Below, one piece after another: positions 536-12,602 of a DNA stretch of 64,000 nucleotides (the stretch's first letter is position 1; each line of letters begins with the position of its first letter). This DNA comes from an uncultured Acidimicrobiia bacterium. GTDB lineage: Bacteria > Acidobacteriota > Terriglobia > Versatilivoradales > Versatilivoraceae. A program made the position numbers and the translations under genes. A model generated the notes under the pieces. That model was not told the origin of the DNA and did not search any database. It saw only the letters and a list, made by a program, of their open reading frames with translations. Where the stretch lies: positions 1-64,000 of the forward strand of contig CAWBAT010000002.1 in assembly GCA_963786955.1 (NCBI GenBank), written 5' to 3'.

Positions 536-3088
536 TCAGTATCTGCCGCGCTGCAGTTTTGGCCAGCGATTAAATACCTTTTCCAGAGGCACGGGATTCA
601 TGTAGGGCTTTCCATGGTGGAAATCATTGACGTTCTGGATGAATTTCTCGATGATTTCGGTTCCATCAATCATATACACGTTGTATTTGTAGAGGACGCC
701 GAGGTCCGAGGGATCGTCCATGATCTCTGCGAATTTGCTGGCTGTGGCGATGGACATGCGACGGGCTTCGCGGAACATCTCCATGCTGTGGTCCAGGCGT
801 TGCATGAATTCATCCTGATTGCCCGCCGCTCGCGCCCGAAAGGCCGCATCGAATTCCAAGTAGGCTTTGTTGAGCTGGACCAGCGTGTTTAGATGCATCG
901 CGTAAGCGTCAGTTTTGTTTCGAAGATACGCCAGCTCGCTGCGAGCGCCCATCGCCACGCTGCTCGCCGCTTGATCGAAATGCACGAGCGCCTGCCGCAG
1001 CAGTTCGGCAGAATGGGCGTAATACACCGATTCATTCCGGGCGTGATCCAGAAAGCCAGCCCAGCCTGCAAAGGTTGGGCCATCGTAGATATTTGCCTGT
1101 TCTGAGTAAGCCTCAAGGATGGCGATCTCCGCAGGAGCGCTGCAGCATGGAAAATTGGACCGACTCGTCCAGCCGAGGTATTCCTCGTTCTCTTCGAGAA
1201 TCTGGTAAGCCTTCAACGCTTCCGGTGCGGCAGCCTCACCGAAGATTCTCCGCACGTAATCCTGGTAGAACTCGCCAGGTTTCATGTGGGGTTTCCAGGC
1301 GCCGTCGGCCATAAACTTCTCGTTTTGTTCCATGCCGCGCGCCCGGTTTACCTGCATCGCGTGTCCCGTCACGCCATTCTCCAGAGCACCTTCGAAGGTG
1401 CGATCCTTGTAGAACATGTTCACGTTGAACTGCATGCCGAACATGCCGCTATCGTCGTCGGAGCGCGTAATCAGTGTCCGCTCGCGGTTACCCATGCCTC
1501 CGTAGTCTTGCATGGGAACTCCCGTCGGAGTCCAAAAGCCCCGGGAGACCATGTCTGAGAAGGGGACATTCTTGGGCATTGCCTTGTCGAGCGAGGGAAA
1601 GAAGAAACCGCGCCCGAACGCGCCGATGCCGACCTTGGCTTTCGGATTGATACGGTCGCGCACCGTCATCGCCTGGCGCATCAGTTCCAGCGTGCCGTTG
1701 TTGGAATCCACCACGCGGTCGCCGCCTCGTTCGTAGCCCGTGTACGCTTTCCAGCGCTGCAGCTGGTCCACGAGATACTTGGGACGTTCCTGCAAATAGA
1801 AAGCGCGGCTCTTATCATCCTCACAAACCGGATAAAATTCTGGGAACCACAGGAAGTAGCCCTCCGCCTCCGGGTAGGTCGTGAAAAGACTCTTCATCCG
1901 GCTTTCATTGATCGCGAGTATGACGGGGTCGGTAGGACACATGTAAACCCCGCCCAGGACATCTTGAAATGGGAGGTCGCCGGTGCGATTGGGCGTATAG
2001 CGTGCCAGGTTCGCCGGCACGCTCACCGGATCAAACGCAACCCAGGTATTGATCTTCCGCGTTTTCGCATAAGCGATGACAGCCCGCAAAAGGTCCTGTG
2101 CCTTCTGTTTCGCCTGCTCGGGTGTTTCTATGTCCTGCATTTCGGGAGGCGCGATCCGCGGATACTTGTAATGCTCCTTGCCCACCGTCATGTCCTTAAC
2201 CAGAGACGAGCCTTGATGGCGGCGCCAGAGCATGTATCCGCTCTCCTTGGCCGTCACGTCACCCAGGAAATTCGTCTCGCCCTTGTAGTCGAAAGTCAGG
2301 AAAGGAATGTCGGGGAGCCACCATATTTGCAGGTAATTCAGCCGCATTTTGGCCATCTGGTCGATGATCTTTCGCCAATCGTCCAGGGACCACAGCGTCT
2401 GGCTTGGGTAGCCATAGCCAATAAACACGCCGCGCCGTTGGAATGCCGGCTCCACGCGCTCGTTGAGGGAAGGGAGCGCGACGTCAGTTTGTTTCTCGGG
2501 AAGGATATCCTGGGTCAGCACAAAGACAAAACCCAGCCGCTCCAGGAAATCGTAAGCCGCATACATCGTCGCAGGCTCATCATTGCCACCTAAGACCAGC
2601 GCAGGGTGCCCTTCAAAGCTGATGCGGCGCAGGACATAACCATCAGTTTTCAATCCTGCAAAGCTTACCTGTCGGCGTTTTGCGGCTTGACCCACCGACT
2701 CGTTGTTCGTCGAGCTGCCGATCAGCAGAAGGCTTTCACCCTTCGGATGACTGCTCACCTCGCGTGACGTGATGATTTCCAGCTTCGCGCCGGACAGGGT
2801 TTGGATGTGTTTCTGCAATTCGCCGGCAACAAACCGATCGAATGAGCCGGCGTTATCACCAATTACGATCAGCGCATGTGGCTGGCTGTTGCTGACGATC
2901 ATTTCCTGACCGCTTGCAGCGGGATAAGCCCGAACTGCTAAATCAAGCAAGCTGATGGCAGTCACCAGGGAGAACAACAGCAAGCCCCGGGACGAATTCT
3001 TGGTTCCTCCCCGTGGCTTTTCGGAATGCTTCTTGAGCAGCGAGAATAGCAGAGAGACTCTGTTGGAAAAGTGCGTCGACATCTTCAC
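536..3088 (-). CDS. Secreted glycoside-hydrolase-like protein (GH20/GH67-type N-terminal domain plus putative TIM barrel), family unassigned
   Basis: 850 aa ORF with a hydrophobic N-terminal segment and motifs FVAGELQKHIQTLSGAKL, DGYVLR, YAAYDFLERLGF, PAFQRRG and WRKIIDQMAKMRLNYLQIW. Confidence 0.65.
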   Translation of the reverse strand: MKMSTHFSNRVSLLFSLLKKHSEKPRGGTKNSSRGLLLFSLVTAISLLDLAVRAYPAASGQEMIVSNSQPHALIVIGDNAGSFDRFVAGELQKHIQTLSGAKLEIITSREVSSHPKGESLLLIGSSTNNESVGQAAKRRQVSFAGLKTDGYVLRRISFEGHPALVLGGNDEPATMYAAYDFLERLGFVFVLTQDILPEKQTDVALPSLNERVEPAFQRRGVFIGYGYPSQTLWSLDDWRKIIDQMAKMRLNYLQIWWLPDIPFLTFDYKGETNFLGDVTAKESGYMLWRRHQGSSLVKDMTVGKEHYKYPRIAPPEMQDIETPEQAKQKAQDLLRAVIAYAKTRKINTWVAFDPVSVPANLARYTPNRTGDLPFQDVLGGVYMCPTDPVILAINESRMKSLFTTYPEAEGYFLWFPEFYPVCEDDKSRAFYLQERPKYLVDQLQRWKAYTGYERGGDRVVDSNNGTLELMRQAMTVRDRINPKAKVGIGAFGRGFFFPSLDKAMPKNVPFSDMVSRGFWTPTGVPMQDYGGMGNRERTLITRSDDDSGMFGMQFNVNMFYKDRTFEGALENGVTGHAMQVNRARGMEQNEKFMADGAWKPHMKPGEFYQDYVRRIFGEAAAPEALKAYQILEENEEYLGWTSRSNFPCCSAPAEIAILEAYSEQANIYDGPTFAGWAGFLDHARNESVYYAHSAELLRQALVHFDQAASSVAMGARSELAYLRNKTDAYAMHLNTLVQLNKAYLEFDAAFRARAAGNQDEFMQRLDHSMEMFREARRMSIATASKFAEIMDDPSDLGVLYKYNVYMIDGTEIIEKFIQNVNDFHHGKPYMNPVPLEKVFNRWPKLQRGRY

Positions 3089-3156
3089 CTCGTAATAGGT
3101 AGTGGATTTTTGCGTTCATGACTGTCCTGTGCGTCTTCAGCACTTCTGAGACGGAT

Positions 3157-3730: not shown

Positions 3731-5584
3731 TTATAACGCAACCTCAAGCAGGGGTGCCGATTTATGCTCTTCCTTAGTTGGAGGAGTATATCCGTCGGGA
3801 AGGTCACCGTTGTCGGCTCGGAAATACTGAAGGTAATGAGGGCGGACACTGGCGATCAATTCTTTTCGTGACTTCGTCTTCAACGGCTTTCCCATGTAAA
3901 TCTTGCCCATCTTGTGCATCCATTTCTCGGGTAGTATCCCGGAAAACAGCAGGAGTGGCCAGGTGAAATCGGGTCCGTTTATTTTTCGAAGTTTATAAAG
4001 CCATAAGCCAATCGATCCCACTCGCCAGGCGGTTGGTCCCCACCAGCTGTACTGACCGGGGCGCAGATTGAATTTCCAACATTTCATCAACAACTGCCAC
4101 TGAAGTTTGGTGAGGTTTCGTGTCTCCGTGACACCTTGTTTTTTCTCCATCCGTGTGTCATGCAGCGGAGTAAAAATTGAAGGAACGAGGAATGCAAACA
4201 GTTTTCGCCGTTCCATTTCGTAGACGAGGTCGAGAGTCGCCTTGATATCATCATCCGTCTCGCCCGGGTTTCCCACCATCAAAGTCATGACCGGGAACCA
4301 GTTGTTTTCGTTATAAACCTTCAATCCCTCCAGGACAATGCTGGGCCAATCGTCAATTGAGAAGGGAACGCCTTTGCTGGGCATAATGGATTTGGCCATC
4401 CGGATCGATCCAGTCTCCAATCCAACAAGCGGTGCCAGGGCCTTTTTTTTCGGATGCGTGCTCAACAAGGGCAGATGGATCGGGCTTTTTTCCATTAATG
4501 TTTCAGACAGCTTCTTAATGAGTAGCGGGTCAACCACAGCCGGCGTCACGGTGCAATGACTGAGAACATGCTGTTCAACTCCGGGAGTATTGACCACTTC
4601 GCTGTACAGGTCGAGCAACGCTTCACGGTTGGGAAAAAAGAATGGAGTTTCGGTCTGAACCTGTCCCCAGATGAACATATCCTCGGTGGCCAGGGAGATC
4701 TGTTTGTTTCCCTGTTCCACATTGACATGGACAGTGGCCATGATTTTCTCTTTTGGAAAATCGATTTGGGGGTTGAGGTCCGGCACGCAAAACTGGCAGC
4801 GACGGCCGCAACCGGTAGTCATTTCGACCACTCCGAACGTGGTTCGTGACTGCGCGATAAGCAGATCCTCCCGGCGCGTGGGGTGGATCACTTCGACATC
4901 GCGTGGCAGTTCCTCTCCGCGGATCGCTTTATGGAAAAGCGCCAAAGTGTCCGCCGATTCGCTGCGCCCTTCCACGACACAATCCACGCTCAGTTCATCA
5001 TAGGAGTCGGTGTCTTTAATCTGCCATCCTCCAGATCCCCCCACGATAACTTTGAAGTTGCTGCGGTGCGGATTTTCTTTGATTGTTTTGAATAGCTGCC
5101 GGGCGTAATGAGAATTGATGGGCATTTTAGAGGAGCCAAAAATCGATGTATAGACTCCTGCCGCAAAGGTGACGCCCAGGGGATTGTGGGTTGAGAGCGC
5201 CACGACTCGCGTCTTCGGGCCAACAAACTTCGGAAGGTCGTCTGGGAAACAGGCAACGACATCCTCGCGACGAAATTCTCTCAATAGAGAACTTTCCAGC
5301 AGTCGGACACCTGCCGGCATGTAGCGAGCCGAGCCATCGTCGTTATACTCAAGGTTGCGCCATGTCGGATACTTGTTGTTGATCACCCACTCCAACCAGA
5401 TCGGTAGGGAAGCCAGGGCCATCTGGATAAAATAGCCCGCATGATCAATGATTTCCGTTAAAGGAGCACTCAGAACAATCAATCTGCCCCCATCGGGAGG
5501 AGGCGTATATGCGGCTATCGATCCTCCGCTGGCAACATCGCCTTGACGCAAATGGCCATTCCCATTGACTCCACTTCTGGTCAT
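3731..5584 (-). CDS. B12-binding-like radical SAM protein, GDGT ring synthase (Grs)-like family
   Basis: CxxxCxxC motif (GCGRRCQFC), plus KVIVGGSGGWQ, VGLETGS and TLMVGNPGETDDD. RBS GAGGAG upstream. Confidence 0.8.
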   Translation of the reverse strand: MTRSGVNGNGHLRQGDVASGGSIAAYTPPPDGGRLIVLSAPLTEIIDHAGYFIQMALASLPIWLEWVINNKYPTWRNLEYNDDGSARYMPAGVRLLESSLLREFRREDVVACFPDDLPKFVGPKTRVVALSTHNPLGVTFAAGVYTSIFGSSKMPINSHYARQLFKTIKENPHRSNFKVIVGGSGGWQIKDTDSYDELSVDCVVEGRSESADTLALFHKAIRGEELPRDVEVIHPTRREDLLIAQSRTTFGVVEMTTGCGRRCQFCVPDLNPQIDFPKEKIMATVHVNVEQGNKQISLATEDMFIWGQVQTETPFFFPNREALLDLYSEVVNTPGVEQHVLSHCTVTPAVVDPLLIKKLSETLMEKSPIHLPLLSTHPKKKALAPLVGLETGSIRMAKSIMPSKGVPFSIDDWPSIVLEGLKVYNENNWFPVMTLMVGNPGETDDDIKATLDLVYEMERRKLFAFLVPSIFTPLHDTRMEKKQGVTETRNLTKLQWQLLMKCWKFNLRPGQYSWWGPTAWRVGSIGLWLYKLRKINGPDFTWPLLLFSGILPEKWMHKMGKIYMGKPLKTKSRKELIASVRPHYLQYFRADNGDLPDGYTPPTKEEHKSAPLLEVAL

Positions 5585-5732
5585 ACGTTCTCCTCAACTG
5601 TCAGTTTGGGGACCTATCGTTGCAAACAGGCTTATTCTAAAGTGGTTTGCTTCCATGTGCAATTTAAAAAAAGAAGGAGGTTGCGAAAGAGCAAGGCATG
5701 AAGAGCTCAGACAGCCCTCTCTAAAACCGAAG

Positions 5733-7544
5733 TTAGTCCTTTTCCATTGGGATTTTCTTCATCCCGGGCCTCTTCCGAAGCCGGATCGAAGTGGGAGTGA
5801 TCTCAACCAGCTCATCCTCTCTAATAAATTCTAAAGCCTTCTCCAGCCCCATTTCTCGATAAGGGATCAATCGGATGGCTTCATCCGAGGTCGAGGCTCG
5901 CATATTGGTGAGCTTTTTTTCTTTGGTCACATTCACAAAAAGGTCGGTTGAGCGCGAGTTTTCACCACAGATCATTCCTTGATAAATATCGTCGCCGGGC
6001 CGTACGAAGAGTTCCCCGCGGTCTTGCAGGTTATTGAGCGCAAAGCCTGTTGCTCTGCCGGCACGATCTGCGACGAGAGCTCCCGTTAAACGCGAAGGAA
6101 TGGAGCCCTGCCAGTCATCATAACCATCAAAGAGGTGGTTCATGATCCCGGCGCCCTTGGTATCGGTGAGGAACTCGGTCCGAAATCCAATCAGACCCCT
6201 GGCGGGCAGCCGGAACTCCAGGCGCACACGGCCACTGCCATGATTAATCATTTTCTGCATCTTGCCCCTACGGGTGCCGATCTTCTGAGTGACGACTCCG
6301 ATAAATTCCTCAGGGCAATCGACCAGGAGCATCTCCATCGGCTCCATGGTTTTCCCATCAAGAGTCTTGGTGACGATCTCAGGCTTGGAGACTTCAATTT
6401 CATAACCTTCCCGTCGCATCATCTCCAAGAGGATAGCCATCTGCAATTCACCTCGACCGATCACACGGAAGGCATCATTTCCGGGCGATGGCTCGACTCG
6501 TATGCTGACGTTTTTGAGCAGTTCCTTCTCAAGTCTTTCTTTCAAATGCCGTGAAGTGACGAAGCGGCCTTCTTTGCCTGAAAAAGGGGACATATTGGGG
6601 GAAAATACCATTGCCAGCGCGGGCTCATCGATTTTCAAGGTGGGCAGTGGATGAGGGTTCTCAGCGTCGGCGATCGTCTCACCAATCGTGACGGTGTCAT
6701 TGCCGGCAAGGGCGACAATGTCCCCGGCGGAAGCTTCCGATATTTCCACTCGTTTCAGTCCGTCAAAGACATAAAGCAGTGTAACTTTAAAGCGGTCACG
6801 GACTTCGCCAGAGCTGCAAACGGATACCGTTTCACCTTGTTTGATGGATCCGCTGGTGATGCGACCGATCGTCAGACGTCCTACGTAGTCACTGTAATCA
6901 ATATTAGTTACTAGTAATTGCAAATTTTGCTGGGGATTGAACTGAGGGGGCGGAATTTGTTCGAGAATGGCTTCAAAGAGAGGACGCAGATCTCTGGATT
7001 CATCCTCAAGATGTCGCTTGGCTAATCCAAGTTTTGCATTGGTGAAAATGATGGGGAAATCGATCTGGTCTTCACGAGCATCCAGGTCAATGAACAGATC
7101 ATAGACTTCATTGATCACTTCCGAGATACGGGCGTCCGGGCGGTCAATCTTATTGATCACGACAATTGCCGGGAGATCCTGCTCGAGCGCCTTCCTGAGT
7201 ACAAATCGGGTCTGTGGCAACGGTCCCTCGGAAGCATCGACCAGCAACATTACGCCGTCCACCATCTTGAGGGTCCGTTCGACTTCTCCGCCAAAATCAG
7301 CATGTCCCGGCGTATCGACAATATTGAGCTTGATCTCATGGTAATGAACCGCGGTGTTCTTCGCCATAATGGTGATGCCTTTTTCCCGCTCCAAGTCATT
7401 ACTGTCAAGGATACGCTCCTGCACTTTTTGATGCTCCCGGAAAATACCGCTTTGCCAAAGCATGGCATCTACCAAAGTGGTTTTGCCATGATCGACATGG
7501 GCAATAATCGCAAGATTCCGAATATCATTTCTTACTTGAAGCAT
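5733..7544 (-). CDS. typA: Translational GTPase TypA/BipA
   Basis: [48 protein letters not shown] and [12 protein letters not shown] at 7544 has an AAGGA RBS. Confidence 0.97.
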
Positions 7545-7707
7545 GGTTTCCTTTACGTTGTAGTGATCTACCTCTTGTTGCAAAACGCTCTATCTTATGG
7601 CACTCCGTGAAAGGCTACAACCACAAAAAGAAAATGAGGGGATACTTTCACCGGGTGGTGTCGTTTTCTACTTGTGAAAAGCATGCGCTTGGCAAATTTG
7701 AATGAAG

Positions 7708-8205
7708 TTATGAGGAATGATCTGGAGTATCCATGGTGGGGCTCGTGCTGCGGTTTTCCGCAAGGATGGCGAGCAGTTGCAGTTCCTGGTTATAGATGCT
7801 CCGGAGCGTCCGGGCCGTAAAAAACCGCTCCAGTGGCCCGAAGATCCCACCCCGAGCAGAGAACCGAGTGGCAATCGTTACTTTTGTAAGTTGGCTTCCT
7901 TCGAGCGGAGAAATTGTGAAGGTCGTTTCAGTCCCGGATGACGAGTCTGTTTCTGCTAGAACGCGGCCTGGTTCGGGCTCAGTGATTGCTACCCGGAAAG
8001 TTCTTGTCAACCCGAATACATGCATCTTGAAACGGATAATCGTTCCCGCCCCAGTCCCACCTTGCTCGACTTCCAGTGCTGAAAAGTATCCCTTTGGCAA
8101 AATCTGAGGGTGCCCCTTTCGGTAGTCTGCTACGATTTCATAGACCAGTTGGGCTGGAGCGAGAACAAAAGCTTCTGCTTCCACCTGGAACTTTTTCATC
8201 GACAT
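7708..8205 (-). CDS. SRPBCC/polyketide cyclase family protein
   Basis: APAQLVYEIVADY..HPQILP, GGTGAGT and ITEPEPGRVLAET. Confidence 0.8.
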   Translation of the reverse strand: MSMKKFQVEAEAFVLAPAQLVYEIVADYRKGHPQILPKGYFSALEVEQGGTGAGTIIRFKMHVFGLTRTFRVAITEPEPGRVLAETDSSSGTETTFTISPLEGSQLTKVTIATRFSARGGIFGPLERFFTARTLRSIYNQELQLLAILAENRSTSPTMDTPDHSS

Positions 8206-8323
8206 TTTCCTCGATTGGGGAAATCCCCGCAAAGCTTCACGAGGGGATTCTGGGTATGGGCCGCAGTTCTTTTTGGTGCGTGAAATGGAAGAGGGTTTTT
8301 ACGTTTACCCGGCCAGATATACA

Positions 8324-9337
8324 TCACTTAATCCCAATGACCATAGAATCTGGCCCAACTAAGTGTTCGACGCGAGTCTCCTTAAATCCAACTTCATACA
8401 GCCATCCCGAGCAATCCGCACCTGTATAGTCAAAGCCTTCTGTCGTTTCGATGAGCATATTCAGACTCATGAGAAGACCAAAGGCATTCTTTGAGCGATC
8501 ATCGTCAATGATTGACTCGTAAATAATGACCGCTCCTCCATTCGGGATTGCTTCATACGCTTTTCGAAGAAGTAGCTTTTTTTCGCCCAAGTTCCAATCA
8601 TGGAGGATATGCCCCATCATGACCACGTCGGCGGGCGGCAGGGAATCATTGAAAAAGTCACCCCCAACAAAGTGCAATCGATCTGAAAGCCCATGCTGCA
8701 AAGCATGTTCCTCGAAAATGGGTTCGACCTCAGGAAGATCGAATCCAATTCCAGAGAGATGAGAGTTGGCCAAAGCAACTTGAGTTGCCAAATCGCCCTG
8801 GGCCGTCCCCACGTCAATGAAGAGATCGTAATGTTTCCAAGGAAATTGTCGGGCTATGGCAAGGTTGGCGCCGTGACTGATTCCCGTCATTGCTGTTAAG
8901 AATTCTTTGAGTCGTGCGGGGTCGGCATAAAGTGTTTGAAAGAATGGATCGCCCCCCATCTTCACTTCATTCTGTGGCTTGCCGGTACGCAAGGCCTCCG
9001 TTAAATGGTTCCAGAAACCATAAAGGCGATGATTGGCCATCTCGAGCATCCCGCCGATGTAAGAAGGTTTTCGCTTATCCAGGTACAGCGCTGTTTCAGG
9101 CGTGTTTTGGTACTTGTCATCAACTTTTTGAAGAAAGCCCAACGCCACTAATGCGTCCAGGAAATCACGTGCCGAACGTGGATGGAGGCCCAGCCGTCCC
9201 TGGAGAGTTTTGAAGTCCTCTGGATGTTTGGCGAGCTCTGTGAAAACCTCCATCTCGACTGCGCTTAAAAGCGTTTTGGAAGCCCAAAATCCAAGGCCGA
9301 CCTGCATGATCTTTTCCGGGCTTGAATCATTACTCAT
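8324..9337 (-). CDS. SAM-dependent O-methyltransferase (dimerisation domain plus Methyltransf_2)
   Basis: [32 protein letters not shown] and SLNMLIET. Confidence 0.9.
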
Positions 9338-9375
9338 CAAGTTCTTTCTCCTCTTCTAGTCCAAAAGTAACGCCT

Positions 9376-9681
9376 TTACCGAAAAACCCGGAATAATAGC
9401 CAAGTGAGGTATAAGATTAAAACAAACATGGCGGCAATTGCGAAGGGAACGAATCGTTGAATTCTGTTTACCAGGCGAGCACTCTTGTCCTGAATTGCTT
9501 CAGCTCGCTCTTGGATTTTCGCCGTTTTTTCGTGCTGATTCAGAAATATTTGATACTGCTCTCTTTGTAAAGCCAGAGATTCCGCCTGGCGCTCAAGCTG
9601 TGCTTTTTGATTATCCCGTATCTCTTCAAGGAGTCGAGCCATCTGTTCCAATTTGTCCGTATCGTTCATGCGCATCCTCAT
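9376..9681 (-). CDS. Small coiled-coil protein with C-terminal membrane anchor
   Basis: 101 aa, Q/E-rich helical body followed by one hydrophobic helix. Lies in line with the minus-strand cluster. Confidence 0.6.
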   Translation of the reverse strand: MRMRMNDTDKLEQMARLLEEIRDNQKAQLERQAESLALQREQYQIFLNQHEKTAKIQERAEAIQDKSARLVNRIQRFVPFAIAAMFVLILYLTWLLFRVFR

Positions 9682-9816
9682 GGTGATTCATACAACGCCA
9701 TGCCTTGTAAAGGTCCGTTGGAATTAAGAGCGATCGACGAAACCCGGATGACCGGGATCGGTCCAGGGCTCCTGGAGTTCCTGGCAATCTCAATGCGGGC
9801 GTAAATCGCTGACGGG

Positions 9817-12081
9817 TCAGGCCAGTTTGGTGCGGGAAAGAGGGAGTTCTCGCACCCGTTTGCCAGTGGCGGCAAAAATGGCGTTACATAATGCCGGCGC
9901 AAAAGGGGGCACCCCCGGCTCTCCCACGCCGGCAGGAGGCGCGTCGCTCTCAACGATATAGACATTGGTCTCGCGCGGCGCGTCACTGATACGGCATAGC
10001 GGATAGTCATTGAAGTTGGATTGGTTGATGACGCCATTCGTCGCCGTAATCTCTCCATAAAGTGCGAGGCTTGCGCCGAATACCGCGGCGCCTTCAAACT
10101 GAGACCGGACCATATCTGGGTTCACTACAGTCCCCGCATCCACTGCGGTGTGAACTTGCGGAATGTGAATCATGCCGTGGTCGTCCACTTCCACCTGGAC
10201 AATACTAGCGACGTAAGTCAGAAAACTGCGGTGAATGGCAATTCCCATGCCTTGGCCCTTGCCGAGCTTCTGTTTACCCCAGCGGGCTTTTTCGGCAGCC
10301 AGCTCCACGACCCGCCGGAATCTGGCGATGTCAATGGGGTATTCGGCATAAGAGGCGCCATAATTCGGATAATCCGCTGGCAGGCTATTCCGGTCGACAA
10401 TGCGGTCTGGTCCGAGCAGCGCGAGGAGGTATTCCACGGAGTCACGGCCCGCATGATGGGCAAGTTCATCGGCAAAGGATTGAACGGCGAAGGTGTGATA
10501 GATATTCGCGACCGAGCGCAGCCACCCAATGCGCACATGCGCGGCAGCAGGGCCATTTTCGACGCGCAGATTGGGTACCGCGAAGGGGAGATCGGACCAG
10601 CCGAGCCCCATCTCACCGGCATCGCTGTAGGTTTGATTCTCACTAAAAGTCGACCCAATGGGGGGAAAGACAGATCGCTGCAGCCAGGCGGTCGGCATCC
10701 CTTTTTCGTTCACGACAGCTTTCAGGTACATTGCCGCAACCGAGTGGAAGTAATCAGAGTGAATGTCATCCTCACGTGACCACACAACCTTCACCGGACG
10801 TCCCGTTTTTTTGGAAATTAAGGCTGCTTCCACTGCGAAGTCCGGCTTGGACTTGCGTCCAAAGCCGCCTCCCAGCAGCGTTACGTGGCAAATCACATCC
10901 TCTTTGCGGATGCCCAACAACTTGGCCACAGTTTCTTGCACGCCTTGTGGATTCTGGGTCGGAGCCCAAATTTCCACTTTGCTCTCTTGATAATTTGCTG
11001 TGGCGACAGGTGGCTCCATGGAGGAATGTGCCAGATGAGGGGCATAGTATCCCGCTTCAACGATCGTTCCGCCTTTGGAAAACTCTTTTTCAACGTCGCC
11101 ATCGTTTCGGATCATCTTTCCAGGTTTGCGAGCGGTTGCTTCCAATTCCTTCCGATACGCATCGGAATTGTAGCTGGCATTTGGACCATTTTCCCACTGG
11201 ACGTTCAGGTTCTTCCGGCCCTGGAATGCTGCCCAGGTGTTGTCGGCGATGACTGCCACGCCCCCGAGAGGTTGGAAGCCATAGGGAGGATTGGCAGGGT
11301 CAATTATCATAGTCTGCCGGACACCGCTCACGTCGAGTACCGCTTTTTCATCAAAGGACTTCACTCGGCCGCCAACGACCTTGGGATGTTCGATCGAGGC
11401 GTAGACCATGCCCTCCAAGCGAACGTCCATCCCGAACTCGGCTTTTCCCGTGCAGATGTCGCGCAGATCATAGCTACTCACGGGCTTACCGATATACCGC
11501 CATTCACTTCTCGGCTTGAACTTCACTGCCTCCTTCTTTGGAACTGGCAGCTTTGCCGCCGCTCGAGTCAGCTTCCCGTAGCCAAGTTTGCGGCCACTCG
11601 GCTGATGCACCACAGTGTGAAAACTGGCCTCGCATTCCGACACGGGCACTCCCCATTGCTGTGCGGCGGCCGTCACCAACATCGTTCGGGCCGTCGCGCC
11701 CGCCTCACGCATTGTGTCAAAGAAACTGCGCACCGAATGTGAGCCGTCGGTATCCTGACTTCCGTACTTAGAGTCGCCAATAGCCTGCACGATCCGAACA
11801 CGCTCCCAATCCGCCTCCAGTTCATCGGCAAGAATACGTGGTACTGCCGTGCGGCTGCCGCAGCCCATTTCCGAGCGGGTGGCGACGAGCACGGTAGTGC
11901 CGTCTGGTTCAATCCCCAGGAAGACATTGGGGTGAAATGACGTACCCTTTAGAGGGTTATTACCAGCAGGAGAGTCTGCCGAGAGACATGCGGGGGCGAT
12001 CTGGGCACCAAGGATGAAGGCACCGGCGGAGAGTGTTCCCTTGAGGAATCCACGTCGGCTAATGTTCTGGATGGTGTTCAT
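9817..12081 (-). CDS. iorB: Xanthine dehydrogenase-family molybdopterin subunit (isoquinoline 1-oxidoreductase beta-like)
   Basis: Tat-like [24 protein letters not shown] and [13 protein letters not shown] overlap with the upstream 2Fe-2S gene. Confidence 0.88.
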
Positions 12082-12602
12082 GCTGTGCCTCCGGCGGCAG
12101 CCTTGATGGCTGCTCGAATTCTCTGATAGGTTCCACATCGGCAAAGGTTGTTCGCCATCATGTCATCGATATCCTGGTCCGTCGGGTGTGGCTTTACCTT
12201 CAGGAGTGCAGCGGCTTGCATGATTTGCCCTGTTTGACAATAACCGCATTGTGGAACATTCTGTGCCATCCACGCTGTCTGGATCGGGTGCAGCACGTTC
12301 GTAGAGAGTCCTTCAATGGTTAAGATCTCTGATCCAGCTACCGATTTCATCGGAATCGTACAGGACCGAACAGGTTCGCCATTTTGGTGAACCGTGCAGG
12401 CACCACAAAGTGCGATACCGCAACCGAATTTTGTCCCGGTCAGACCCAGAACATCCCGCAGGTACCAGAGCAGCGGCATTTCCTGATCACCTGTAAATGA
12501 GCACGTTTTACCGTTTACCTTGAAATCGAGTGATTGATTATCTTTTTTTTCATGGCTTTTAATGTGATGTCTTGAGGATAATTGAAAACTTAACGGGGTC
12601 AC
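12078..12602 (-). CDS. iorA: (2Fe-2S)-binding subunit (IorA-like)
   Basis: [28 protein letters not shown] and NLCRCGTY. Start position uncertain. Confidence 0.9.

Follow-up and report, generated by a model that had tools for sequence, protein, structure and literature searches.

The closest described systems to the gene reported here are GrsA (Saci_1585, 489 amino acids (aa)) and GrsB (Saci_0240, 528 aa), the glycerol dialkyl glycerol tetraether (GDGT) ring synthases of Sulfolobus acidocaldarius. According to the published description of their models (PMC13459092), they combine a Rossmann-like domain, a partial triosephosphate isomerase (TIM) barrel with a CX3CX2C motif and a C-terminal helix predicted to bind the substrate, and that description gives them no auxiliary cluster. 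Among bacteria, Candidatus Solibacter usitatus makes branched GDGTs (brGDGTs) that bear cyclopentane rings as well as C5 methyls (PMC10087280), and two groups have pointed out its single Grs homolog, Acid_5783 (Chen et al. preprint; PMC10087280). Here we describe a Grs-like radical S-adenosylmethionine (SAM) gene located at positions 3731..5584 (minus strand, stop codon included) of a 64,000-nucleotide (nt) stretch of acidobacterial DNA (contig CAWBAT010000002.1, assembly GCA_963786955.1), hereafter the window. We tentatively read its 617-aa product, P0001, as a tailoring enzyme for the alkyl chains of membrane-spanning lipids, whose leading candidate reaction is ring closure; we hold this assignment to be possible rather than probable.

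The supplementary table of PMC10087280 lists Acid_5783 (597 aa) at 29.3% identity and 75% coverage with GrsA (E 3.9e-38), and at 25.2% identity and 84% coverage with GrsB (E 1.3e-40), and a figure published in the same article places it in the same PANTHER family as both. The Blum et al. preprint, in which Grs homologs are defined by BLASTP thresholds of at least 70% coverage, at least 20% identity and E ≤ 1e-40, describes such homologs in hot-spring Acidobacteriae, nested among archaeal sequences. Grs homologs have been published also for Planctomycetota and Cloacimonadota, and in family-level surveys. The idea of a bacterial Grs-like tailoring of brGDGTs, which an earlier note made from the letters of this DNA had treated as open, has been in print since 2022, for Acid_5783.

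P0001 and Acid_5783 (Q01UE0, strain Ellin6076), the published candidate brGDGT ring synthase, are presumed to be orthologous; both are acidobacterial, of similar length, and match PF04055 only. P0001 is a new member of the bacterial Grs-like branch; the brGDGT-tailoring role, published before for a protein of this kind, is reasonable for it but unproven. With GrsA and GrsB it shares the architecture of the published models and, likewise, the co-occurrence with a synthase of the Tes (tetraether synthase) type; that they form one family is judged indirectly, from the taxonomic range of the homologs and from the published similarity of Acid_5783. It differs from them by its bacterial host, by its putative non-isoprenoid (branched alkyl) substrate and by its size: P0001 exceeds them by about 90-130 aa, being extended at both termini and carrying an insert at residues ~360-380, where 43-47 of the 82 aligned sequences have gaps.

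P0001 and the Grs-like family

The gene is genuine and intact. In the list of open reading frames (ORFs) of the window, a single uninterrupted ORF with an ATG start occupies the minus strand of the interval, of which the plus strand gives a translation riddled with stops. The earlier note had seen a 617-aa radical SAM protein here, leaving the strand unstated, and PF04055 (Radical_SAM) indeed matches residues 253-454 at 32.2 bits (cut-off 29.5), as the sole Pfam match even at E ≤ 10. The six motifs quoted in that note are all present in the minus-strand translation: PAGVRLLESSL (residues 90-100), PDDLPKFVGPKTRVVALSTHNPLG (114-137), KVIVGGSGGWQ (178-188), GCGRRCQFC (258-266, which provides the CX3CX2C motif), GLETGSIRMAKSIMPSKGVPFSIDDWP (388-414) and TLMVGNPGETDDD (434-446). 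They are the motifs that make up the consensus of 44 distant relatives (APYGLRK.EA.LL, DPLG, K.VVGGPGAWQ, RGCGRGC.FC, GIETGSPRL..M.GK..PF.PEEWP and TLI.GLPGET.DDV). Short contigs from three sediment RNA libraries of two studies map onto the gene with 1-5 differences per 120-295 nt; these contigs carry no strand information and may stem from DNA carry-over, which makes them a weak hint, and the parts of the gene left uncovered are uninformative.

Close homologs of P0001 amount to 3088 proteins at E ≤ 0.001 among 8000 scored candidates. The best 120 of these 3088 are 73-100% identical to it, and the 13 named organisms among those 120 are all Acidobacteriota (six Pyrinomonadaceae, three Blastocatellia, two Terriglobia and two unspecified). 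A phmmer search of 1.84 billion cluster representatives returned no more than 999 relatives, of which 254 reach E ≤ 1e-30; those that are full-length and distant measure 480-590 aa, with 28-43% identity. The relatives of these distant sequences that bear a name belong to archaea (Nanoarchaeia, Odin, Hel and Thor archaea, Bathyarchaeota, Hadarchaeales, ANME-1, Archaeoglobaceae and Thermoplasmatota). In a collection of species genomes, 78 of the best 80 loci are archaeal, including Candidatus Nitrosopumilus salarius, Thermofilaceae, Thermococci and Thermoplasmatales, and two have acidobacterial titles. This archaeal range fits the published descriptions of Grs homologs, as given in the Blum et al. 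preprint, PMC11214058 and PMC8473941.

In a direct comparison of P0001 with five archaeal genomes that bear a name, the single copy of a Thermoplasmatales genome (L101, 531 aa; E 1.1e-99, 36% identity over residues 75-559) gave the best named match, followed by matches in Methanobacterium (E 1.9e-68), Thermofilaceae (E 1.4e-60), Archaeoglobus (E 1e-55) and Ca. N. salarius (E 2e-55), the last with a second copy. All five genomes also encode, as distinct genes, canonical B12 radical SAM proteins that match PF02310 (B12-binding) strongly, whereas their Grs-like genes reach 23-25 bits on that model. A 409-aa protein labelled 'MAG Sulfolobales archaeon' (P0406; 31% identity, 167 bits; MAG, metagenome-assembled genome) was considered as a Sulfolobales anchor and dropped, its label being doubtful, as it groups tightly with a Bathyarchaeia sequence.

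Ammonia-oxidising archaea hold up to three deeply separated Grs-like types, of 526 aa, 577 aa and 491-555 aa, at loci of Ca. N. salarius BD31 (L105/L115 and L116) and of Nitrososphaerales and Nitrosopumilales MAGs (L097 and L102). In one MAG, two Grs-like genes lie head to tail (L097:18-1466 and 1489-3156). As a speculation, the Grs-like genes of the ammonia oxidisers may be linked to the cyclohexane ring of crenarchaeol.

AlphaFold2 (AF2) folded P0001, from the 82-row alignment, with a mean predicted local distance difference test score (pLDDT) of 88.3 and a predicted template-modelling score (pTM) of 0.87, into three parts, namely an N-terminal domain of alpha/beta type, a core resembling a barrel and a C-terminal set of six helices. 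The predicted N-terminal domain, Rossmann-like and B12-binding-like in the AF2 model and in Foldseek comparisons (residues ~33-235, encoded by 4880..5488, minus strand), holds PAGVRLLE, HNPLG and VGGSGGWQ, and its strands alternate with helices (E36-E205). It is followed by the radical SAM core, a partial TIM barrel delimited by PF04055 and the alignment (residues ~253-470; 4175..4828, minus strand), with GLETGS at 388-393 and GNPGETDDD at 438-446. The CX3CX2C cysteines, C259, C263 and C266 (4787..4810, minus strand), site of the SAM-cleaving [4Fe-4S] cluster, are invariant in 82 of 82 sequences including P0001, as are G182, G388, E390, K404 and P407. No cysteine beyond these three is invariant (C502 is found in 67 of 82), and thus no auxiliary-cluster motif is apparent. 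The modelled C-terminal helical region (residues ~493-587; 3824..4108, minus strand), rich in Trp, Leu and Phe, consists of helices 493-507, 515-536, 538-548, 553-558, 573-578 and 582-587, and likely forms a surface for peripheral membrane or lipid binding. No transmembrane helix is predicted anywhere in P0001, the highest 19-residue Kyte-Doolittle mean over the whole protein being 1.32. P0001 would be soluble or peripherally membrane-bound, and its N-terminal domain is probably cobalamin-binding.

The structural neighbours given by Foldseek are the cobalamin radical SAM enzymes MgmA (9ccb, E 4.6e-13), TsrM (6wte), TokK (7kdx), CysS (9n1b) and OxsB (5ul4), but also the cobalamin-free MiaB (7mjz) and AprD4 (6fd2). 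The predicted fold is therefore that of B12-type radical SAM enzymes, a fold that cobalamin-free enzymes have as well. P0001 resembles the five cobalamin enzymes in overall fold (E 5e-13 to 1e-7) and differs from them in sequence (10-16% identity), in the absence of a PF02310 signature and, on their side, in their different substrates.

P0001 belongs to none of the curated families in the libraries scanned. No Pfam or NCBIfam model covers the Grs-like family, and 25 scanned members gave only weak TIGR04013 or MiaB matches. P0001 itself has seven weak, sub-threshold NCBIfam matches, among them TIGR04013 at 35 bits, and PF02310 does not match it at E ≤ 10; relatives show faint 12-bit matches. 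Four known identities were tried and rejected. A canonical class B radical SAM methylase (of the Gmm/Cgm/MoeK5, TokK or HpnR type) is contradicted by the missing PF02310 match and by the absence of any class B model among the seven NCBIfam matches. The MiaB/RimO methylthiotransferases are contradicted by a score of 48.3 bits against the 251 required by TIGR00089, with neither the conserved N-terminal cysteines nor a TRAM match. YgiQ has Pfam domains of its own, and P0001 carries no YgiQ-specific (UPF0313) domain. Finally, P0001 is not a Tes/GDGT-MAS tetraether synthase: it has no NF045702 match, and the best hit of a sequence search of the PDB was RimO, at E 0.03.

Archaeal descent and co-occurrence with Tes homologs

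A FastTree phylogeny of 143 rows divides the family into two large groups and likewise places the bacterial clade among archaeal rows. In an IQ-TREE phylogeny of 67 rows (LG+C20, Shimodaira-Hasegawa-like approximate likelihood-ratio test), all sequences from the Acidobacteriota, the phylum of the window, form one clade with a support of 100 and two subfamilies, that of the P0001 orthologs and a sister subfamily. This clade adjoins Thermoplasmatales, and both are included in a group of support 98 with Bathyarchaeum, Hadesarchaea, Thermoplasmata and Methanomassiliicoccales. When five canonical PF02310-type proteins were used as outgroups (51 rows), the Grs-like family was monophyletic (100) and the bacterial clade (99) was placed deep among the archaeal rows. 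Both IQ-TREE runs were quick ones that did not include bootstraps, and the outgroup sits on a long branch. L101 and its Bathyarchaeia, Hadesarchaea and Methanomassiliicoccales relatives are the sister or neighbouring lineages in both of these trees, and are unlike P0001 in being archaeal and shorter. The trees show a bacterial clade, with P0001 as a member, that descended from archaeal Grs-like genes, and the simplest reading would be that a gene passed once from Archaea to this phylum and was then duplicated. The earlier note had taken the motif layout as that of the Grs-like clade rather than of generic class B methylases, and this view is supported, with P0001 sharing the consensus of the archaeal family and nested in it, apart from the PF02310-type proteins.

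Two further MAGs, one assigned to Candidatus Acidiferrales (L078) and one to Polarisedimenticolaceae (L079), contain Grs-like genes of a different, archaeal type. The L078 gene groups with ANME-1/Methanophagales and a 'Euryarchaeota archaeon' on short branches. Such genes point either to a second transfer, of recent date, or to an artefact of binning.

The distribution of the family in the phylum was followed in 301 genomes, the source genome of the window included, with carriers defined by a match at E ≤ 1e-20, Tes homologs by NF045702 at E ≤ 1e-40 and hopene cyclases, our control, by TIGR01507. Thirty-three genomes are carriers (a count that includes the unpublished genome G054). Orthologs of P0001 occur in 24 of them (58-100% identity, with 58-75% across the phylum), the other nine having the sister subfamily only (36-41%); both subfamilies are present in G226 and in the source genome (G000). 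The ortholog distribution is thus patchy, with 24 of 301 genomes and with named relatives that are mostly Pyrinomonadaceae and Blastocatellia; none of the 26 other genomes sampled from the class of the window has an ortholog, and two have the sister subfamily.

P0001's bacterial clade is found almost only in genomes with a Tes-type synthase homolog. A Tes-family gene was detected in 32 of the 33 carriers and in 149 of the 268 non-carriers (181 of 301 overall; Fisher p 6e-7), and the only Tes-less carrier is an assembly in 510 contigs. The earlier note had named, as an outcome that would speak against its idea, orthologs occurring mainly in genomes devoid of a membrane-spanning lipid synthase, and these figures go the opposite way. 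The hopene cyclase control showed no such trend, with 7 of 33 carriers and 50 of 268 non-carriers (57 of 301 overall; p 0.8), and a hopanoid role was rejected as unlikely, 26 of the 33 carriers being without a match. Both tallies include the unpublished genomes G157 and G029, and the Fisher tests ignore the kinship of the genomes, which are not independent. Applied to 14 control genomes, the Tes search matched only M. jannaschii, S. acidocaldarius and M. acetivorans.

The source genome (5.65 Mb in nine contigs, 93% complete, 40 PF04055 matches) follows the pattern. The search for tetraether or membrane-spanning lipid synthases that the earlier note had proposed returned, among the 40 PF04055 matches, two long-type Tes homologs, of 656 and 679 aa (NF045702 at 294 and 328 bits, below the cut-off of 450); at a distance of 23 kb, one of the two has a PlsA/Ger-like DUF2229 gene. 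S. usitatus is similar in having a Tes homolog of the long type (Acid_2410, 714 aa) as well as a PlsA-like gene, and differs in that it has a canonical Tes homolog too (40% identity to MA_1486), where the source genome has only the two of the long type. Other B12 radical SAM proteins of the source genome reach 94-210 bits on class B models, and its true RimO reaches 512 bits (NCBIfam).

The second Grs-like copy of this genome, a member of the sister subfamily with 40% identity to P0001, is located outside the window on contig C6 (L149:8001-10080, corresponding to G000:C6:506000-508080, minus strand), and is split into four consecutive ORF pieces of 125, 129, 268 and 92 aa. Further split or stop-bearing genes were seen on the same contig, also outside the window, at C6:339212-340074, C6:566834-567321 and C6:593554-594242; among them, a TAA interrupts a hopene cyclase match, a TGA interrupts a radical SAM gene, and a PlsA-like DUF2229 gene is spread over two frames. 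These cases suggest sequencing or assembly errors across the genome, and 'broken' genes of this genome are to be read with care. As several other genes are split too, an assembly error is as likely as decay into a pseudogene for the second copy.

Surroundings of the Grs-like genes

The orthologs of P0001 are stand-alone genes, and the 48 proteins that flank them are housekeeping or unrelated. One ortholog locus (L138, in G049) was left out of this context analysis, as its gene was not called by our crude ORF caller.

The sister subfamily offers a different picture in one genome, G296, where a gene of this subfamily lies directly downstream, on the same strand, of a 717-aa Tes homolog. This arrangement, found in one of the nine genomes with the sister subfamily only, is part of a same-strand cluster (L143:2489-16991, on G296:C104). 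In order, the cluster encodes an AMP-binding/PP-binding (acyl carrier protein)/acyltransferase protein of 853 aa, a radical SAM protein of 349 aa, a 97-aa ORF, the Tes homolog with its Zn-ribbon, the Grs-like protein of 559 aa, a beta/gamma-crystallin-like protein, a HAD + NAD_binding_4 + Sterile reductase of 787 aa and a NAD_binding_4 reductase of 417 aa. Both reductases are NAD_binding_4 fatty-acyl reductases, and the whole looks like a compact operon for an ether or membrane-spanning lipid. Among 80 metagenomic loci of the sister subfamily, the commonest neighbour family was seen at 11.

In the window, the P0001 gene is flanked by typA and by a gene with a GH67N-like match. A Shine-Dalgarno-like GAGGAG, read off the sequence, is located 6 nt 5' of the ATG (5590..5595, minus strand). 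The 148-nt gap to typA contains one weak candidate for a sigma-70-like promoter (TGCACA, a 16-nt spacer and TAGAAT; 5634..5661, minus strand), and the promoter scan, with two promoter-like sites against 3.5 ± 2.4 in shuffled sequences, stayed at chance level; a terminator scan around the gene did not exceed shuffled sequence either.

Upstream, and again on the minus strand, library matches identify TypA/BipA (5733-7583, 909 bits), an SRPBCC/polyketide-cyclase-like protein (7708-8232), a plant-type O-methyltransferase with its dimerisation domain (8324-9340) and the large subunit of a molybdopterin oxidoreductase with a twin-arginine translocation (TAT) signal (9817-12144), beside which the ORF list gives a 174-aa ORF (12078-12602). 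These upstream genes (5733-12602) are unrelated to one another. On the other side, 536-3088 (minus strand) encodes an uncharacterised glycoside-hydrolase-like protein of 850 aa with an N-terminal signal-like segment; a weak match to the GH67 N-terminal domain (30.7 bits) is its only one, and its NCBIfam scan was empty.

Candidate chemistry, rival explanations and meaning

How could P0001 act on a lipid? Reductive cleavage of SAM would yield a 5'-deoxyadenosyl radical, which would take a hydrogen from an unactivated alkyl-chain carbon of a membrane-spanning lipid, one of the iso-diabolic-acid or brGDGT type. The resulting radical on the substrate, which cobalamin may help to hold, would then join a methyl branch, through a new C-C bond, to the methylene that lies four carbons away and so close a cyclopentane ring, the reaction proposed also for GrsA and GrsB. 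This assignment, reasonable but unproven, rests on homology to the Grs-like family, on the enrichment in co-occurrence and on two rare gene clusters. Ring formation is the preferred chemistry and at the same time the least secure step. The earlier note had proposed a GDGT cyclase or methylase; its Grs-like part stands, and cyclisation, methylation or another reaction cannot be distinguished from sequence.

Several observations weigh against such a lipid-ring role. The presence of family members in archaea that are not known for ringed lipids, such as Methanobacterium, suggests that the family spans more than one chemistry. Cobalamin use by P0001 is an assumption, PF02310 being undetectable. 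The link with Tes is an enrichment and not a tight one, Tes-family genes being frequent throughout the phylum; the kinship of the genomes also means that they are not independent. At 12 ortholog loci, with 8 kb on each side, no neighbour family recurs beyond close kin. No Tes homolog was found in the flanks of the 80 metagenomic loci of the sister subfamily, 38 of which have at least 2.5 kb upstream, and neighbours of lipid type (fatty-acyl reductases and an ElbD-like gene) are rare, at one of the 80 (L200). Relative to the validated GrsA and GrsB, the bacterial clade of our trees could fall within, beside or outside the ring-synthase clades, and the published trees of PMC8473941 place homologs from mesophiles outside the GrsA and GrsB clades of thermophiles. 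Moreover, a literature search from 2023 onward on heterologous brGDGT ring synthases gave no report of activity for a bacterial homolog.

Part of this evidence would suit an enzyme of the same substrate class with another chemistry, one that adds the extra C5/C6 methyls of brGDGTs, desaturates or cross-links without closing a ring. The co-occurrence with Tes fits this explanation equally well, the long stem branch of the orthologs (0.63-0.82 substitutions per site), after which they are strongly conserved, fits a functional change after the transfer, and homologous B12 radical SAM enzymes of archaea are described as cyclising, methylating (Gmm, Cgm, Pgm) and desaturating (Ted) tetraethers; furthermore, the C5 and C6 methylases are without an assigned enzyme in the published brGDGT work considered here. 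We nevertheless regard it as unlikely. The characterised archaeal methylases and Ted are published as relatives of Gmm/MoeK5-type enzymes, whereas P0001 matches neither PF02310 nor a class B methylase model in Pfam and NCBIfam, and the canonical B12 radical SAM proteins encoded by the archaeal genomes compared above fall into a distant group of their own. In addition, S. usitatus, with one Grs homolog in the published BLAST table, both methylates and cyclises, and therefore one enzyme cannot simply explain both reactions.

P0001 might also act alone on something else, be it a cofactor, a peptide, an RNA or a different lipid, and the link with Tes would then reflect shared genome ancestry only. 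The lack of a conserved neighbourhood is compatible with this, down to the position of the P0001 gene between typA and an unrelated glycoside-hydrolase-like gene, as are the Tes-family genes present in 60% of the phylum sample anyway and the labels that the Joint Genome Institute (JGI) gives to relatives, which are only COG-level 'YgiQ' or 'MiaB'. These last identities fail, however, as seen above, and a hopanoid role is made unlikely by the carriers without hopene cyclase; lipid ring synthases are the only members of known function in the literature consulted, and two lipid-cluster contexts are known for the sister subfamily. All in all, we find this other-substrate explanation rather unlikely, though credible enough to be kept in mind. 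A fourth explanation, in which the transferred archaeal gene is an inactive relic in this bacterium, could invoke the split copy of the sister subfamily in the same genome. It is highly improbable for P0001, as the copy in the window is intact and keeps all the invariant residues of the family, its orthologs are still 58-75% identical across the phylum, and near-identical fragments turn up in the sediment RNA libraries, with the possible DNA carry-over already mentioned. The lipid-tailoring enzyme with ring closure remains the assignment that we prefer.

In conclusion, our study adds to the published idea one bacterial clade nested in Thermoplasmatales-like archaeal homologs, with two subfamilies, and an ortholog subfamily that is strongly conserved yet patchy, does not track hopanoid genes and is almost never clustered with lipid genes. 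The P0001 gene is one of thousands of near-equivalent homologs, and its individual value is modest. As terrestrial palaeothermometers and pH proxies, the brGDGTs rank with the most widely used, and in the published work considered here the enzymes that add their rings and extra methyls are still without assignment, for which a Grs-like bacterial clade that tracks Tes is the obvious candidate. We would go one step further only as a doubtful proposal: the acidobacterial ortholog subfamily might be not a simple copy of an archaeal ring synthase but the missing tailoring enzyme of brGDGTs, either the cyclase behind the pH-related cyclisation index of branched tetraethers (CBT) or the C5/C6 methylase behind their methylation index (MBT), having entered once from a Thermoplasmatota-like archaeon before being duplicated. 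If this were true, much of the environmental 'pH response' of the ring and methyl indices would reflect which lineages carry the gene, and not physiology.

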